Origin: an uncultured Erysipelotrichaceae bacterium
GTDB taxonomy: Bacteria; Bacillota_I; Bacilli_A; RFN20; CAG-826
NCBI GenBank assembly: GCA_900317165.1
Contig: ONFU01000009.1
Coordinates: 1 to 63,887 of the forward strand
Direction: 5' to 3'
Length of the DNA stretch: 63,887 nucleotides
Part shown: one piece after another, positions 1-4,779 of the stretch
Layout: the number at the start of each line of letters is the position of its first letter
Position numbering within the stretch: the stretch's first letter is position 1
The notes under the pieces: model-generated
Databases searched by the model: none
What the model was told of the DNA's origin: nothing
What the model saw: only the letters and a program-made list of their open reading frames with translations
Program-made: the position numbers and the translations under genes

Positions 1-2573
1 GCGGCCGAATCGGTCTTGAAGTCGATGACCGTGTCGTTCATGTGGTTAGCGACCAAATAGTTGTAGATATCCACTGATGGATAAGGAACCTCGTTCTTGT
101 TGATGGCCATATGGAAACTGAGGTTGGTCGTGTTGAAATTGGTGTAGAGGGAATATTGGTGGTTCGGGGAGATATAGACGATGCGGTTTTGATCATCGAA
201 CTCCTGGGTGAAACCTAATTCATATAAGGAATATGGGTATTCGTTATAGACGGTCATGGCCTTCTTTTCGCCATCATACATAAGGCCTTGAATCTCGAAG
301 CGTCCAGATTCTGGACCATCGGTCTTGAGGTCGAACAATTTGACGTTGCCAAGTTTTGGTAACGGATCGGTGAATCCGAAGGCTGCCAATGTTTCCGCGA
401 CGAGTTTGCTATCCCAAGCATCAGGTGCATCGGGGATGACGTATTTGGTTGGGGTGACGCCTTCAGCAAGGCCAAAGACCATCTTGGAGGTCATCGATTT
501 GACGCTACCCATGCCATCGGTATAGACCTCGGTTACCTCAAAGAACAGTTCGTTCTTCTTGGCGTCGAGATAGAACCTCTTGGCGAAAGTCGTATCTCCG
601 GATGCGCCATTGATGACCTGGTCTTCGCCATTGAAGTCGATCGCGTAGATGTCCTCGCCATAATATTTATCGGAGGCTGCGGTTGGCTCAATGGAATAGG
701 AACCGCGGACGACGAATTCGTTTTGCTCGATCCTCCCAGATTCCGGAACCATCGCGAACTTAGCTTCGCCATATCCTTCCTCGAAGAGGCTGATCGCGGA
801 ATTCGCATATCCTTGTTGGTAACGCAAAGCCAAGTTGTCGTCTCCGCCTTCAAGTCTCGTAAGTTCCTTGAAGTTGAAGAGTTTGTTTTCGACTAACTGT
901 TCGTAATTATCATCATGAGGATCCTCTGGGAGATTATCCAAACGGCTTGGGGAATCGTTGACGGCTTCGAATTCGATGCCGCCTTTGAAAGAGACGCTTG
1001 AGCCGGCACCCTTGGAGGTGGTGATATAGCCTTCTGCCTTGAAGGATTCGGTGGAAGGAAGGTAATCGAAGTACATGTAATCGCCTAGGACGAAGACTTC
1101 CTGTCCGTAATCATTGATGTGATCACCATGATAGTATTTGCCGGCCTTGCCATTGAAGTAGGTTTCCAAAATAACTTCGGAGTAGACATACGAATCACTG
1201 ACTTCGGAATCGAAATGGCCCAAGAAGGCGTAATTGATTCTGCCGTCTGCTGAGGTGGAATACATCTCAAACGAAGCTCCGGTGATGTTTCCGTCATCAT
1301 CAATTTCGCCGTCATCGAAGAAGGAGACGGTGATGGTGGAGAGGAAGTTTTCGAGCCATTCCTTGGTGTATTTTGGATCTTCGGAATAACCATCCGCCAT
1401 AGATTCGGCCTTATATTTAAGGGTTAACCCCGCAAATGGATTGAGCTTATCGTCTTCCTGGCTCTCCGCGACGACGGTGATTTCGCAGGTCGCGATTAAT
1501 TTGCCTAAGGTGGCCGTGATGGTCGCCTTGCCTTCAGCAACGGCAGTCACGATGCCATATTCGTTAACGATGACGACGTTTTCGTTGCTGGAATTGAAAG
1601 TCGGCATCGAAGGAGTGGCGTCAGCCGGTTCAAAGATCATCGAGAGGGATTTGCTCTCGCCGACTTTCAAGGTCAAAGCCTTATCTACGAACTCGATTTT
1701 GGTGACATCGACGCCTGGGGCGACTTCCGGCAAAGTAACCTCTGTTGTGCCCCATTTTTCGGTGGTGATATTGACTGAGCCTCCTCCAGTAGGAGCGGAC
1801 GCTTTGTAAGACATCGAAATCAATTTCTGATCTTCGAATTTGATGACGATATCGGTGACATTGACTTCAAAGGTTCCTTCATCGTCTTCCATAACCCAAA
1901 CGTCGGAGGCTTTGACATAGGCATGAAGATCGCCATTGAAGGTGAACTCATTGAAGGCCCATGGATGGATGAAGGTTCCTACGATTGCCATGTATTGGGT
2001 AGCGACCGCGGCGCTTACGTTTACTTTTGTCCATTTGCCATCGCTGGATTGGACGTACATATCGTAAGTGCCATCTTGTTTAGGAACCGTATATGTGTTG
2101 AATTCCGATTCGCCGCCGACGGCTTTCAAATGGAGCTTGCCGTTTTCGTTTTCGATGAGGACTGTTTCGGTCGAGCCGTTATCTTGAACGGCCACGATAT
2201 TGAAGGTCAGGTTGTTGTTTACGCCAAAATAACCACCTCTTGTGATGTTCTCGGTCCAGAGGTTTTCGCTGACTTTATATTTTTCAAGCCCTTGTTCGCT
2301 GCTTGATTGATCGGGGCTTGTGGATTCCGATGATTCCACGGGCCCCGTTTCAGAAGAATCGTGTTCGCCTTCGCTTGAAGCGGATGATTCTCCGGAAGTC
2401 GATTCACCTTCGCTTGGTCTTGAAGTAGATGACTCCTCGGTGGTTAATGAGGTTGTCGCGCTGCCTTCGCTTCCGCCACTAGAGGAAGAGGATTCTGGAG
2501 CAACGCCAGGAGAGCAACTCGCCAAAAGGGCGGTCAGGGCAACCGCTGATAAAAGAATAAATGACCGTTTCAT
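1..2573 (-). CDS. Surface lipoprotein with Ser/Glu-rich linker and bacterial Ig-like (Big_2-type) domain; C-terminus runs off the left edge
   Basis: Absent from the supplied ORF track because it is open to the window edge. Reverse-strand ATG at 2573-2571 is preceded by GGAGGA. N-terminus MKRSFILLSAVALTALLASC is a signal peptide plus lipobox (LASC), followed by an S/E/G-rich linker. Segment VTKIEFVDKALTLKVGESKSL...IVTAVAEGKATITATLG fits the Big_2 pattern. My manual translation stays open to position 1. Track ORFs in 254-2598 are off-frame shadows. Confidence 0.8.
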   Translation of the reverse strand, partial: MKRSFILLSAVALTALLASCSPGVAPESSSSSGGSEGSATTSLTTEESSTSRPSEGESTSGESSASSEGEHDSSETGPVESSESTSPDQSSSEQGLEKYKVSENLWTENITRGGYFGVNNNLTFNIVAVQDNGSTETVLIENENGKLHLKAVGGESEFNTYTVPKQDGTYDMYVQSSDGKWTKVNVSAAVATQYMAIVGTFIHPWAFNEFTFNGDLHAYVKASDVWVMEDDEGTFEVNVTDIVIKFEDQKLISMSYKASAPTGGGSVNITTEKWGTTEVTLPEVAPGVDVTKIEFVDKALTLKVGESKSLSMIFEPADATPSMPTFNSSNENVVIVNEYGIVTAVAEGKATITATLGKLIATCEITVVAESQEDDKLNPFAGLTLKYKAESMADGYSEDPKYTKEWLENFLSTITVSFFDDGEIDDDGNITGASFEMYSTSADGRINYAFLGHFDSEVSDSYVYSEVILETYFNGKAGKYYHGDHINDYGQEVFVLGDYMYFDYLPSTESFKAEGYITTSKGAGSSVSFKGGIEFEAVNDSPSRLDNLPEDPHDDNYEQLVENKLFNFKELTRLEGGDDNLALRYQQGYANSAISLFEEGYGEAKFAMVPESGRIEQNEFVVRGSYSIEPTAASDKYYGEDIYAIDFNGEDQVINGASGDTTFAKRFYLDAKKNELFFEVTEVYTDGMGSVKSMTSKMVFGLAEGVTPTKYVIPDAPDAWDSKLVAETLAAFGFTDPLPKLGNVKLFDLKTDGPESGRFEIQGLMYDGEKKAMTVYNEYPYSLYELGFTQEFDDQNRIVYISPNHQYSLYTNFNTTNLSFHMAINKNEVPYPSVDIYNYLVANHMNDTVIDFKTDSA

Positions 2574-2899
2574 ATTTGGTCCTCCATTGCAAAAATAATT
2601 TAAGGCTTTATGTGCGGTTAGACAAGGATTATATGTATATAATCTATGCTCGTGCATACACGCAAATTGGCATTTTCGACCACCGTTTCTAAAGATTTTA
2701 CGGTTTTGCGAAATCTCTAATTTAGTATCCATTTTGTTAATTTTAGATTCGCGCTTACGCACGTGTTCTTAAGCGTGCGAGAATGGCGTTTGGAAAAATA
2801 AAAATTTTTTGAAATTTCTTTGCAAAAATGTGGTGAGAAATTCAAAAAGATTAGAAATAATCGAAGAAAAATATTAATAAAAAAATTTTTAAAAAACTC

Positions 2900-2927
2900 T
2901 TGACAAGGATAAAAATATCTCCATAAT
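2900..2927 (+). promoter_or_regulatory. Sigma70-type promoter with A/T-rich UP-like tract, driving the 2931-4153 RNA
   Basis: TTGACA (2900-2905), 16-nt spacer, CATAAT (2922-2927). Positions 2820-2899 are almost pure A/T (aaaaatttttaaaaaactc just upstream of the -35). Confidence 0.6.
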
Positions 2928-3003
2928 TATGCTCCTGCCGCTTGAAAAGGCGACAGTAAGGAGCTAAGGTCCTTCTGGTAACAGGGGTGACCCGTTAAGC
3001 TCC

Positions 3004-3030
3004 GGGAGCTGGAACTTCGCTCCCAAGAAG
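3004..3030 (+). repeat. ncRNA hairpin module A: GGGAGC-UGGAACUUC-GCUCCC followed by AAGAAG
   Basis: Read directly; shares loop and 3' tail with modules B-D, stem differs but remains complementary. Confidence 0.75.
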
Positions 3031-3134
3031 ATCGCGGCCGAGTCGAGTCGAGCGAGCCGAACCGCAACATGGTCAAAGCCGTGTTGTCAGGAGTTAGGGT
3101 AACCGAGTAATCGGTCGAAACCCGCCAAGCTCCA

Positions 3135-3160
3135 GGGTCTGGAAATTCGACCCTAAGAAG
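3135..3160 (+). repeat. ncRNA hairpin module B: GGGUC-UGGAAAUUC-GACCC followed by UAAGAAG
   Basis: Read directly; 5' flank ACCCGCCAAGCUCC parallels ACCCGUUAAGCUCC before module A. Confidence 0.75.
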
Positions 3161-3384
3161 ATTGGGGAGCGTGCTTCTCAATCCGCAGCGAACCCCCTGC
3201 AGCGATGCAGGCGCCGGCTACCGTACCTTGAGTAATCTAGGAACCGGGCACAAGTCGGAACACCTTGCTTGGGTGTTGAGAAAGGGAATGGGAAACCTGA
3301 ACCAAGGCCAAGCAACGGCGATAATGTATCGTCGGTACCGGATAGGGCAGCGGAAGTAATTCCGCCGAACCTGCAGAAGCCGGA

Positions 3385-3410
3385 AGGTCTGGAACTTCGA
3401 CCTTAAGAAA
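3385..3410 (+). repeat. ncRNA hairpin module C: AGGUC-UGGAACUUC-GACCU followed by UAAGAAA
   Basis: Read directly; same loop as module A with a co-varied stem. Confidence 0.7.
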
Positions 3411-3510
3411 ACCGCTGGACACGTCTAGCGGATCGAACCGTGGGAAACGGTAGAACGCTTCCCTGATCGCATAGGGTCTTCTGAGAAATTGGTTTGACCT
3501 GATAAGGCGA

Positions 3511-3539
3511 GCGGTCTGGCACACATCGGCCGCAAGAAG
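3511..3539 (+). repeat. ncRNA hairpin module D: GCGGUC-UGGCACACAUC-GGCCGC followed by AAGAAG
   Basis: Read directly; loop keeps 5' UGG and 3' UC, stem includes one U-G wobble. Confidence 0.6.
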
Positions 3540-4127
3540 GAACCGCGCAAGTGGTTCACAACCCGGAGCCGTGAGAGAAATCTCGCGCAGCTGGCTAGGG
3601 CGACTGCGATAGCATCAAGGACCCGCCTTCGCAAGCCAGGCGGTTAGCTTCCGACCGTACGAAGGCCGAGAGACGAAAGTCTCCAGTCGAGAGGGAGCGC
3701 ACATCACGTAAGTGGTGTGGTCCGGAGAGGGTACGATCTCACGAAGATCGCAACCCGTTAACAAACCGGGCGGCAAGGTAACCCCGCCGCAAGAAGGGCA
3801 AGGAAAACAGGCCTTGTCCGGAGTGGTCCGCTCCATGGGCAAAACCATGGAAGTCCAGTTAGGGCGCTTGAGCGATCAAGAATTCCTGCTAAAACTGGGG
3901 AAGATGATTGGCGCTCCCTGCCGATCACCGTCCAAGAAGGAAGGCTGTCAGGTCTTCCGCCGCCAGGAGGAGCGGTTAAGAAAAACCTTCTACTTCCGGA
4001 AAAGGGAAAGGCTGAGGACAAAAGCCCTCTCCCGGGATCCGGCGCCTTGTATCAGGCGAGAAGAACCAAAGCGTAAGTCAGGGTTCAAAGATGCGCCAGG
4101 GAAGCCACCTGATCGATTGGCTTGGGA

Positions 4128-4153
4128 GGGTGAGAGTGATCTCATCCTTTTTT
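4128..4153 (+). terminator. Intrinsic terminator ending the 2931-4153 RNA
   Basis: GGGTGAGA (4128-4135), loop GTGA, TCTCATCC (4140-4147), then TTTTTT (4148-4153). Confidence 0.75.
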
Positions 4154-4227
4154 GTTATTTATTGGCTATCGGTTTGCAAAAAAGTACTATAGTTTCGTGT
4201 AGCAAAAGTTCGAAAAGGAGGAAAAGT

Positions 4228-4779
4228 ATGAAAAAAACATTTCCTTTGCCTTTAATCTTAATGTGCCTTTCTTCATGTGGAGGTCAAGCCAATCCATATG
4301 GGACGATAGACCAAGAATCCTTAACTGCCATTTCCGGAAGTTATTATTTCTACGCGCCTAATGGCTGGTATGAAGAGAATCCAGAATGCGAACCCGTTAC
4401 CCTAGAGCTTAGAAGCGACTTAACCTACACGATTAATCTCGGAGAAGAATCCTATCAGCAAAAATACGAGATCCATCGCGTCAAAAACGAGGCCGCTAGA
4501 GATTATCAATATGCCGGAAGCATCGGCGATCCTTACCCCGAGGATAAAATACACAGCTATTCGATTGCCTTCGATTTTATCGATAAGGAACTCCCCTCTC
4601 CTTTAGCCTCTTCCTTCAGCCATTATAAAATGTCTTATCAATTCATCTATGTGGCCGTTGAGAAATACGGTTCGTATAAAAAAGGCACCACGTGGCTCAC
4701 CAAATATGGGGCCGCCATGGCAGATCCTATCTATGAGAGGGATCCAGATAGTAGGGGCATGACCTTCTATAAAGATTAA
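4228..4779 (+). CDS. Small lipoprotein, function unknown
   Basis: ATG at 4228 is preceded by AAAGGAGGA. MKKTFPLPLILMCLSSCGG is a signal peptide plus lipobox (LSSC). The track ORF 3712-4779 over-extends upstream through the terminator. Confidence 0.8.
   Translation: MKKTFPLPLILMCLSSCGGQANPYGTIDQESLTAISGSYYFYAPNGWYEENPECEPVTLELRSDLTYTINLGEESYQQKYEIHRVKNEAARDYQYAGSIGDPYPEDKIHSYSIAFDFIDKELPSPLASSFSHYKMSYQFIYVAVEKYGSYKKGTTWLTKYGAAMADPIYERDPDSRGMTFYKD

Follow-up and report, generated by a model that had tools for sequence, protein, structure and literature searches.

Bacterial RNAs that are large, highly structured and of unknown function are rare, and new classes of them have opened new biology or structural principles. 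Three of these, OLE, ROOL and GOLLD, use A-minor contacts and kissing loops and have 2-, 8- and 14-fold symmetry (PMC12286853). The RNA described here is encoded in a 63.9-kb stretch of DNA (referred to as the window, the whole stretch that was analysed) and resembles these three RNAs and raiA in being stand-alone, GC- and purine-rich and heavily structured, with a size in the 0.6–1.2 kb range, many conserved unpaired nucleotides, Firmicutes-type hosts and a function that is not readable from its neighbours; ROOL was, in addition, also first seen in rumen data. It differs in that it has no match to their covariance models, is much narrower in distribution (five lineages of one clade) and is not phage-associated. 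In OLE, ROOL and GOLLD the repetition is between chains, whereas here it lies within one chain of nine modules.

A second group of relevant RNAs comprises CsrB/RsmZ and CrcZ, which, like the present RNA, are independent transcripts carrying many copies of a short motif on or beside hairpins, the stems varying while the motif stays. The units of the present RNA are instead 128-nt four-hairpin modules of fixed copy number and order, and its motif is AAGAA following a stem, in contrast to the A(N)GGA in a loop of CsrB/RsmZ. Tandem riboswitches (glycine and triple c-di-GMP) are described as homologous structured domains placed head to tail in one transcript (PMC4759541, PMC9481103). The RNA shares this arrangement, but with nine units rather than two or three, with no downstream gene under its control and with no match to a known aptamer.

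A stand-alone RNA gene

The stretch at 2930–4157 is delimited as a stand-alone RNA gene with its own predicted promoter and terminator (Table 1). The non-coding stretch lies between a σ70-type promoter and an intrinsic terminator, each of which is kept in the orthologues: TTGAC of the −35 element and CATAAT of the −10 element are retained in all lineages, whilst the terminator stem of lineages L011, L081 and L082 has a different sequence in which compensatory changes restore the pairing. Within the RNA there are no evident internal promoters, terminators or motifs of the processing type. Its GC content is 57%, against about 45% in the genome (GC profile), it is also purine-rich, and its minimum free energy is −503 kcal/mol. 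The gene 3' of the RNA varies in identity and orientation among lineages, being convergent in L011, and the RNA is therefore not a leader.

Table 1. Coordinates of the predicted RNA gene, its nine repeats and its flanking signals in the window, with scores of covariance model R1.
Feature	Position	Strand	Elements	R1 score	Remarks
Promoter of RNA gene	2900–2927	+	TTGACA, 16 nt, CATAAT		11 of 12 consensus positions
Whole structured ncRNA	about 2930–4157	+			about 1.22 kb, stand-alone
Repeat 1 core	2960–3032	+	Pa 2960–2965/2998–3003; Pd (hairpin A) 3004–3024, stem 3004–3009/3019–3024; tail AAGAAG 3025–3030	70 bits	Pc loop GUAA; helices covary
Repeat 2 core	3090–3162	+	Pd (hairpin B) 3134–3154, stem 3135–3139/3149–3153; tail 3155–3160	74.3 bits	One Pd G-C pair is A-U in L082 and L206
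Repeat 3 core	3214–3285	+	Pd 3259–3277; tail GAGAAAG 3278–3284	Untrained: 19.1 bits, E 1e-3 (window); 18.5 bits (L011); 19.4 bits (L082)	Diverged unit; CUACCG replaces YUAGGG
Repeat 4 core	3338–3412	+	Pd (hairpin C) 3384–3404, stem 3385–3389/3399–3403; tail 3405–3410	65.8 bits	Four Pd pairs covary among orthologues
Repeat 5 core	3467–3541	+	Pd (hairpin D) 3511–3533, stem 3511–3516/3528–3533; tail 3534–3539	61.2 bits	Pd stem invariant, loop varies between lineages
Repeat 6 core	3591–3666	+	Pa CUGG/CCAG; Pd 3640–3658; tail ACGAAGG 3659–3665	Untrained: 20.5 bits (window); 24.6–34.5 bits (orthologues)	Pc loop region GAUAGCAUC conserved; tail AAGAAGG in L082
Repeat 7 core	3722–3798	+	Pd 3770–3790; tail AAGAAG 3791–3796	61.5 bits	Pd stem and tail invariant
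Repeat 8 core	3855–3941	+	Pa CCAG/CUGG; extended Pd 3899–3933; tail AAGAAG 3934–3939	Untrained: 28 bits, E 6e-6 (window); 26–33 bits (orthologues)	4 of 6 Pa pairs covary
Repeat 9 core	3996–4068	+	Pd 4043–4058; tail AGAAGAA 4059–4065	9.7 bits, E 0.45 (window); 19.5 bits, E 2e-5 (L011); 10.5 bits (L082)	Most diverged unit; tail AAGAAGG in three lineages
33-nt block	4097–4129	+	CAGGGAAGCCACCUGAUCGAUUGGCUUGGGAGG		Invariant in 5/5 lineages
Intrinsic terminator	4124–4157	+	12-pair stem, GUGA loop, U-run		

The invariant 33-nt block close to the 3' end contains a self-complementary AUCGAU within its predicted loop. Two alternative pairing partners are predicted for this 3' block, and long-range pairings are ambiguous.

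Nine tandem modules

The preliminary description of this DNA had recognised four hairpins, A to D, each followed by a purine tail, (Y)AAGAAR. All four are present exactly where it placed them and are shown here to be the Pd stem-loops of repeats 1, 2, 4 and 5, although the recurring design is larger than was described, hairpin and tail being part of a module of about 128 nt that recurs nine times rather than four. The RNA is a tandem array of nine diverged modules, evidently duplicated anciently and spaced 124–141 nt apart. Each module consists of four stem-loops: sub-domain 1 and Pd come first, followed by a purine linker and then the Pe and Pf hairpins. Sub-domain 1 has the order Pa 5' strand (4–6 nt)-(N)UA-GGG-Pc hairpin-CCYG-(N)n-AA(G)-Pa 3' strand. 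Pd abuts Pa with a gap of 0–1 nt, and the invariant, predicted-unpaired linker that separates it from Pe and Pf is of the AAGAAG type. The 5' flank ACCCGNNAAGCUCC reported as common to A and B is indeed shared, but it belongs to a larger element found in all nine repeats, of which it forms the 3' strand.

A covariance model, R1, was trained on repeats 1, 2, 4, 5 and 7. In the window it also detects repeats 3, 6 and 8 (19–28 bits), which were not used in training, and in orthologues it detects these three and repeat 9, which falls at the expected period; elsewhere in the window, in syntenic relatives and in 80 viral loci it finds nothing significant. Orthologous units are 80% identical in sequence and paralogous units 52%. 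Pc of repeats 1–4 and 8 is capped by GNRA loops in 25 of 25 cases, and each RNA has at least 12 GNRA-type tetraloops, counting the terminator loop. The distance from the GNRA loop to the conserved UA/G..AA internal loop is 10–12 nt, approximately one helical turn. Against any role in docking, it should be noted that among stable hairpin caps GNRA loops are simply the most common.

Hairpins and purine tails

The stems of the Pd hairpins differ in sequence and yet stay complementary, as had been proposed: over 20 copies (five paralogues in four lineages) 95.8% of positions are paired, and four of six pairs show two-sided change. Both Pa and Pd covary across paralogues. The tail is conserved too, except that the Y placed at its start is the last base of the stem, pairing (A-U) with the base that immediately precedes the stem as first drawn; because Y is paired in this way, the tail follows the stem without a spacer in every unit. 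The loop frame UGG...UC holds only in repeats 1, 2 and 4, whereas repeat 5 has UCGCGUAAUGUC in two lineages. UGGAA, and with it GGA, is confined to the Pd loops of repeats 1, 2 and 4; the loops of repeats 3 and 5–9 differ, and it is AAGAA rather than GGA that is conserved from repeat to repeat.

The core pattern CTGGRANTTCGNNNNNAAGAA occurs three times in the window, each time within the RNA, against 0.06 expected. The RNA contains seven AAGAAR; dinucleotide shuffles contain 2.6 ± 1.6, and seven is reached in 31 of 2000 of them. Tracts of the AAGAAG type, each short (6–7 nt), are predicted to be unpaired in all nine repeats; AAGAAG itself amounts to two A-R-N triplets. The tails are invariant, with a probability of being unpaired of about 0.5–0.9 at the six AAGAA-type tails and 0.34–0.71 at the three diverged ones, the value for the whole RNA being 0.37–0.39. 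Of the further tails listed in the preliminary description, those at 3790–3796 (repeat 7) and 3933–3939 (repeat 8) are conserved, but that at 3977–3983 is retained only in the closest lineage, and repeat 9 has its conserved tail further downstream (Table 1).

Pairing of the tails with CUUCU tracts at 2972, 3174 and 3478 had been suggested and is rejected because the tracts, unlike the tails, are not conserved in orthologues; they sit within covarying local stems. Several other candidates were discarded. A pseudoknot between loop UUC and tail GAA involves positions that are all invariant, has too short a linker and lacks the pairing in repeats 5–9. Pairing of the tail with the 16S 3' end (a ribosome decoy) would reach 5 bp at best, and only for tails followed by GG. 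The internal loop lacks the tandem G-A signature of K-turns and loop E, and tRNA-like, 5S-like or group II domain V-like readings of the unit have no model match and the wrong topology.

Covariation

Covariation was scored within the RNA and across homologues, a check that the preliminary description had called for. Across the five lineages, 94.3% of the 375 predicted pairs are paired, compared with 33–49% when partners are slid. Two-sided change is seen at 105 of these pairs, against 58 ± 4.5 in shuffled controls (0 of 500 reaching this number) and 6–23 in slid controls, and this support does not extend to invariant elements. There are 112 G-U pairs against 11 A-C pairs, which marks the structure as specific to the + strand. 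Compensatory substitutions thus exceed both types of control, the stems covary in paralogues and orthologues alike, and substitutions in the RNA have no 3-nt (codon) periodicity. These data support the earlier suggestion that selection acts on RNA structure rather than on coding.

Distribution and database comparisons

The RNA is found in five lineages, including that of the window, within one clade of uncultured rumen and gut Bacilli. The four further lineages are 68–89% identical, align across the full length of the RNA and retain all nine repeats in the same order; repeat number, repeat order and the peculiarities of individual repeats are fixed in five of five lineages, and long invariant blocks sit outside the repeated motifs. 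Identity to L061 is 99.2% in the RNA compared with 92.7% and 97.4% in the flanks, and identity to L206 is 89% in the RNA, with flanks that barely align; the RNA is therefore better conserved than its surroundings. It is absent at the syntenic locus in the relatives L014/L015, L083/L084 and L208. A metagenome scan with a 22-mer gave 12 matches, one of them true (L022), and a genome scan with an 18-mer gave 48, of which two were true (the window's own species and L011), so that exact-pattern searching reaches only the RNA's own clade. Orthologous loci were also located by a synteny walk via the Y_phosphatase3-NUDIX gene, a walk via GlnA homologues being mostly unproductive (contigs too short or of different context).

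At gathering score, Rfam 15 gives no match in the window or in four orthologous loci, a test that covers OLE, ROOL, GOLLD, HEARO, raiA, CsrB/Rsm and CrcZ as well as riboswitches, group I/II introns, RNase P, tmRNA and 6S. At E ≤ 10 over 2600–4400 there are only chance-level matches (E ≥ 1, far below gathering) to unrelated eukaryotic, archaeal and sRNA families. A blastn 'distant' search of the RNA against phage and plasmid collections found no match, and viral-contig scans gave none with the 3' block or another invariant block; with the hairpin and tail pattern they gave at least 120 single chance matches, none of which scores as a covariance model unit. No RNA of this layout was found described in the literature searched. 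The layout of nine four-hairpin modules matches no catalogued bacterial RNA family, and the 1.2-kb RNA of these uncultured rumen bacteria is apparently undescribed.

Possible architecture and alternatives

The 11-nt GNRA tetraloop receptor has the consensus 5'-UAUGG-3'/5'-CCUAAG-3', and a GNRA-capped helix with a receptor about one turn away lets two helices dock side by side. The module resembles such loop/receptor systems (the 11-nt and CC:GG helical receptors, and tectoRNA) in having a GNRA-capped helix with an asymmetric internal loop 10–12 nt away, and the loop shares with the 11-nt receptor a skeleton of UA...GG/CC...AAG beside tandem G-C pairs. The module loop, (N)UA-GGG/CCY-G(N)nAA(G), is not a canonical 11-nt receptor since no U separates A from GG and 3–9 extra nucleotides are present.

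The reading we lean towards, at slightly under an even chance, is that of a structural RNA or RNP, self-packing or multivalent: a large folded particle, with or without proteins, that would act via its shape. Pc-Pb-Pa would be stacked with Pd, giving a rod about two helical turns long, and, because the GNRA loop lies about one turn from the UA/G..AA loop and the GGG/CCY pairs, rods of different repeats could dock side by side via loop-to-minor-groove contacts. The AAGAA linker would exit at the Pa/Pd nick and may serve either as a docking site present in every repeat or as a junction strand whose A-minor-type contacts hold the following hairpins in place. With nine equivalent modules, the architecture would repeat internally, and one chain would be the counterpart of what OLE, ROOL and GOLLD build as homo-oligomers. 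The loop-receptor and A-minor roles proposed here derive from sequence and geometry only. Fixed number and order, invariant non-repeat blocks, GNRA caps and invariant tails that are predicted to be unpaired are pointers to such an architecture over a simple sponge. A more specific form of the proposal, which we regard as doubtful, is that the RNA is built like a repeat protein, with nine protomer-like modules packed into a closed or helical pseudo-symmetric particle via GNRA-loop/minor-groove and AAGAA A-minor contacts.

It had been suggested that the repeated loop and tail could form either a multivalent protein-binding site or a tertiary or intermolecular contact, and the data are compatible with these. 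The main rival, possible though rather unlikely, takes up the former: the RNA would act like CsrB/RsmZ or CrcZ as a multivalent sponge or titrator, an abundant RNA sequestering up to nine copies of one RNA-binding protein through the Pd hairpin with its single-stranded AAGAAG, the UA/G..AA loop, or both. A-R-N repeats are the motif of the Hfq distal face and GGA in hairpin loops is that of CsrA. A sponge would account for the nine regularly spaced, invariant and predicted-unpaired purine motifs directly 3' of a covarying hairpin, for what is predicted to be a strong promoter and an independent transcript, and for the GGA of the three Pd loops; base-specific invariance of AAGAA is equally expected of a protein site. 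Known sponges, however, are smaller RNAs whose hairpins are simple and whose spacers and copy number evolve fast, and they differ from the four-hairpin units and long invariant non-repeat blocks found here; the Pd loop is not common to all repeats, the many exposed A(N)GGA of a CsrA sponge being represented by UGGAA in three of them, and no CsrB, Rsm or CrcZ model matches.

The regular period, the predicted accessible A-rich linker in each repeat and the single promoter and terminator would also suit a polycistronic precursor, a 1.2-kb transcript cleaved within its purine linkers to release nine separately acting small RNAs, paralogous and each about 128 nt long. We consider this very unlikely given that processing-type motifs and internal signals are not evident, that the inter-repeat hairpins and the non-repeat parts at both ends are strongly conserved, which argues for one unit, and that repeats keep individual features across lineages and so are not interchangeable. 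That each sub-domain 1 is a small-molecule or ion pocket, making the RNA an array of ligand-binding aptamers, is highly improbable: a conserved asymmetric internal loop flanked by covarying stems does occur nine times over, but the RNA, unlike a tandem riboswitch, has its own promoter and terminator and no expression platform, the downstream genes are unrelated or convergent, there is no match to any known aptamer class, and a single copy of the unit was not found in any 5' UTR, either in the window or in the relatives' loci. The remaining view, that there is no RNA feature but chance hairpins, a DNA-level repeat (such as protein-binding iterons) or an unrecognised coding region, can draw on several ORFs across 2930–4157, all short (51–95 aa) except one artificial 5' extension of the downstream gene, two of these frames being publicly annotated in orthologues. 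None of these ORFs is conserved across lineages, and the 105 covarying pairs, the strand-specific G-U excess, the lack of periodicity and the threefold occurrence of the core pattern effectively refute this view, which we hold to be next to untenable.

Significance

What is new here is a layout found neither in Rfam nor in the literature searched: a four-hairpin module in nine tandem copies that are conserved among orthologues. The RNA can be tested directly in vitro although its hosts are uncultured, and its recognition bears on public records, in which spurious ORFs are currently annotated across it. It is a natural test case for the growth of RNA size and complexity by internal duplication. 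If the repeat-protein-like particle proves true, it would be an intramolecular counterpart of the homo-oligomeric cages of ROOL and GOLLD, and a snapshot of a large RNA architecture arising by tandem duplication of one unit of about 128 nt. For the poorly known rumen Bacilli, it adds a lineage-specific candidate for an abundant RNA.

Boundaries and non-coding status of the RNA gene

Window positions ~2930–4157 form a candidate gene, read from the sequence, for a large non-coding RNA. The region is purine-rich, has a GC content of 57% (~45% in the genome) and a predicted fold energy of −503 kcal/mol, and lies between a promoter and an intrinsic terminator (see table). Apart from the artificially extended 355-aa ORF in the table, possible open reading frames across the region span just 51–95 aa, and in the orthologue comparison substitutions are spread equally over the three codon phases. 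Two public gene calls without Pfam domains lie inside orthologous RNA genes, one of 98 aa at the related locus L081 (L081:4800-5096, reverse strand) and one of 156 aa at L082 (L082:4526-4996, reverse strand), and are almost certainly spurious. Rfam 15 at gathering score gave no family anywhere in the 63.9-kb window, nothing meaningful for the candidate RNA region at E ≤ 10 and no match in four orthologous loci, and phage and plasmid collections contained no DNA similar to the candidate RNA.

Directly upstream of both the RNA promoter and a lipoprotein gene in divergent orientation is a stretch of 33% GC (2580–2900); it contains long A/T runs, for example aaaaatttttt and aaaaaaattttt, and looks like a UP element or a shared regulatory region. 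Elsewhere in the window, two ORFs of 1242 and 1379 aa at 52.8–60.7 kb resemble rpoB and rpoC by size alone; no Rfam ribosomal-protein leader reaches its gathering score in the window, though one might be expected near such genes.

Features of the candidate RNA gene (window coordinates; R1, covariance model built from repeats 1, 2, 4, 5 and 7)
Feature	Position	Strand	Remarks
Promoter	2900-2927	+	TTGACA-16 nt-CATAAT, 5' of RNA region
Untrained repeat	3214-3285	+	R1 19.1 bits
Untrained repeat	3591-3666	+	R1 20.5 bits
Untrained repeat	3855-3941	+	R1 28 bits, E 6e-6
Ninth repeat	3996-4068	+	weak R1 match in window; 19.5 bits in L011
Intrinsic terminator	4124-4151 plus U-run	+	12-pair stem, end of RNA region
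355-aa GTG ORF	3712-4779	+	downstream lipoprotein gene artificially 5'-extended into RNA; true start ATG 4228
Linker, repeats 1, 2, 4, 5, 7, 8			AAGAAG or AAGAAA
Linker, repeat 3			GAGAAAG
Linker, repeat 6			ACGAAGG; AAGAAGG in L082
Linker, repeat 9			AGAAGAA; AAGAAGG in three lineages

Nine tandem modules

The preliminary description had reported four similar hairpins with compensatory stem changes, each followed by a purine tail, and a sequence check confirmed the positions of hairpins and tails. The signal is genuine and not due to chance: across the whole 63.9-kb window the core pattern CTGGRANTTCGNNNNNAAGAA has three occurrences, all within the candidate RNA (0.06 expected), and AAGAAR occurs seven times in the ~1.23-kb region, compared with 2.6 ± 1.6 in dinucleotide shuffles. 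When the regions around the hairpins were lined up, the same larger element was found 5' of each, with the layout Pa 5' strand (4–6 nt), (N)UA, GGG, Pc hairpin, CCYG, (N)n, AA(G) and Pa 3' strand; the reported hairpin, Pd, follows directly, and then come the purine tail and two further hairpins.

Covariance model R1, trained on five repeats only and run unfiltered over the whole window, scored its training repeats at 61–74 bits and also matched the remaining repeats (see table), with nothing significant in the rest of the window. The untrained repeats reached up to 34.5 bits in orthologues. The nine units start at 2960, 3090, 3214, 3338, 3467, 3591, 3722, 3855 and 3996, a period of 124–141 nt that is the same in L011, and all nine have a purine linker 3' of Pd. 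Orthologous units share a mean identity of 80% and paralogous units 52%, which indicates that the duplications are older than the lineage split and that the individual repeats have been maintained separately ever since.

Covariation of the helices

In a MAFFT alignment of 20 copies (five paralogues in four lineages, 81 columns), the unit is 88% paired as a whole compared with 31–51% in slid controls; Pa is 86% paired with two-sided change in four of its five pairs, and Pd 95.8% with two-sided change in four of six, bearing out the compensatory changes first noticed between the hairpins. Among orthologues, of the four hairpins first noticed (Pd of repeats 1, 2, 4 and 5), those of repeats 1 and 2 each contain one covarying pair, that of repeat 4 contains four and the stem of that of repeat 5 is invariant. 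Over the entire RNA, the consensus of local helices counted on the five-lineage alignment comprises 375 pairs in 62 helices, 94.3% paired versus 33–49% with partners slid by 1–3 columns. Two-sided changes affect 105 pairs, versus 58 ± 4.5 in shuffles (none of 500 reaching 105) and 6–23 when slid. G-U exceeds A-C at predicted pairs (112 versus 11), which assigns the fold to the forward-strand RNA. The covarying pairs, the G-U excess and the lack of codon-phase bias uphold the earlier proposal of selection on RNA structure rather than coding, and exclude chance hairpins, DNA-level repeats and a coding region.

The purine tails are invariant. The six AAGAA-type tails have a predicted probability of being unpaired of ~0.5–0.9 and the three diverged ones of 0.34–0.71, against 0.37–0.39 for the RNA overall. 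The suggested pairing of tails with CUUCU tracts is not supported, these tracts sitting in covarying local stems and none of the tracts being kept in orthologues; a further proposed tail (3977–3983) is kept in the closest lineage only, and only repeats 1, 2 and 4 have the UGG...UC loop frame.

Relatives and distribution

Ten public cattle-rumen contigs carry the same RNA (nine identical, one at 99.7%), and in L061, the GTDB representative, named 'uncultured Erysipelotrichaceae bacterium', it is 99.1–99.2% identical depending on the stretch compared. Walking by synteny, with GlnA and then the Y_phosphatase3-NUDIX gene just upstream, reached four diverged lineages: L206 (88–89% identity to the window), L082 (78%), L011 (~70%; MAG 'Bacilli bacterium' RUI057) and L081/L022 (~70%). 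In all four the RNA aligns over its full length and promoter and terminator are kept, the terminator stem being rebuilt with different sequence. The RNA is conserved better than its flanks, at 99.2% against 92.7% and 97.4% in L061, and at 89% in L206, where the flanks barely align. The downstream gene varies by lineage (lipoprotein, convergent endonuclease, LRR protein or aldose epimerase), which argues for an independent transcription unit rather than a leader.

Rearrangement on the downstream side of the RNA is seen in every lineage. Between the phosphatase gene and the RNA lies a ~1400-aa Big_2 lipoprotein gene (window 1-2573 and L206:2485-6789, both reverse strand); it is absent in L011, L081 and L082, where the RNA is directly 3' of the phosphatase gene. 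The close relatives L014/L015, L083/L084 and L208 have the same gene order and lack the RNA at this locus, with no room and no match.

Exact-pattern scans of genome and metagenome collections, which require exact 18–22-mers and would miss more distant homologues, found the RNA in this clade only. Several genomes of high GC content, from Nocardia, Sphingomonas and others (L028, L036, L046, L047, L064 and more), share the 18-mer GCCACCTGATCGATTGGC; nhmmer found no further similarity in them, and its recurrence within Nocardia points to a conserved stretch of coding sequence that has nothing to do with the candidate RNA.

Proposed architecture

It is quite possible, if short of probable, that the modules build one defined global fold, with candidate tertiary packing, and are not just binding sites loosely strung together. 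Such a fold is suggested by the fixed repeat number, order and idiosyncrasies across lineages, by long invariant blocks outside the repeated motifs, and by the at least 12 GNRA-type tetraloops per RNA, terminator loop counted. Since Pa abuts Pd, Pc-Pb-Pa could stack on Pd as a rod of about two turns per module, and the AAGAA linker, which would exit at the Pa/Pd nick, is well placed to be a junction strand making A-minor contacts. The Pc of repeats 1–4 and 8 carries a GNRA tetraloop in 25 of 25 cases. Between this loop and the conserved internal loop with its GGG/CCY pairs are 10–12 nt. This spacing would be the geometry for side-by-side helix docking through loop-receptor contacts, and the helices may dock in this way, GNRA loop to internal loop. 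GUAA loops prefer tandem C:G pairs; the internal loop is similar to the 11-nt GNRA receptor, yet is not that motif.

Among the invariant blocks is the 33-nt CAGGGAAGCCACCUGAUCGAUUGGCUUGGGAGG (4097–4129), identical in all five lineages, whose predicted loop contains the self-complementary AUCGAU and could make a kissing or dimerisation contact. Different runs predicted two different long-range partners for it, 3307–3316 and 3425–3436, all invariant and so without covariation signal. Precedent for such organisation exists in OLE, ROOL and GOLLD: in these large bacterial RNAs, A-minor contacts and kissing loops give assemblies of 2-, 8- and 14-fold symmetry (PMC12286853). The candidate RNA would have its symmetry within one molecule.

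The main alternative to a global fold, a multivalent protein sponge or scaffold whose predicted repeated site is the hairpin plus AAGAA, is somewhat less likely yet plausible, because a protein site would likewise be expected to show an invariant, base-specific linker. Processing of the transcript into nine small RNAs and an aptamer array are minor alternatives.

No described RNA of this kind was found in Rfam or the literature searched. We class the candidate gene as encoding a putative new class of large structured bacterial non-coding RNA with an unusual internal-repeat architecture; the known set comprises five lineages, and as reached by exact-pattern scans and synteny the RNA appears narrowly distributed among uncultured rumen and gut Bacilli.
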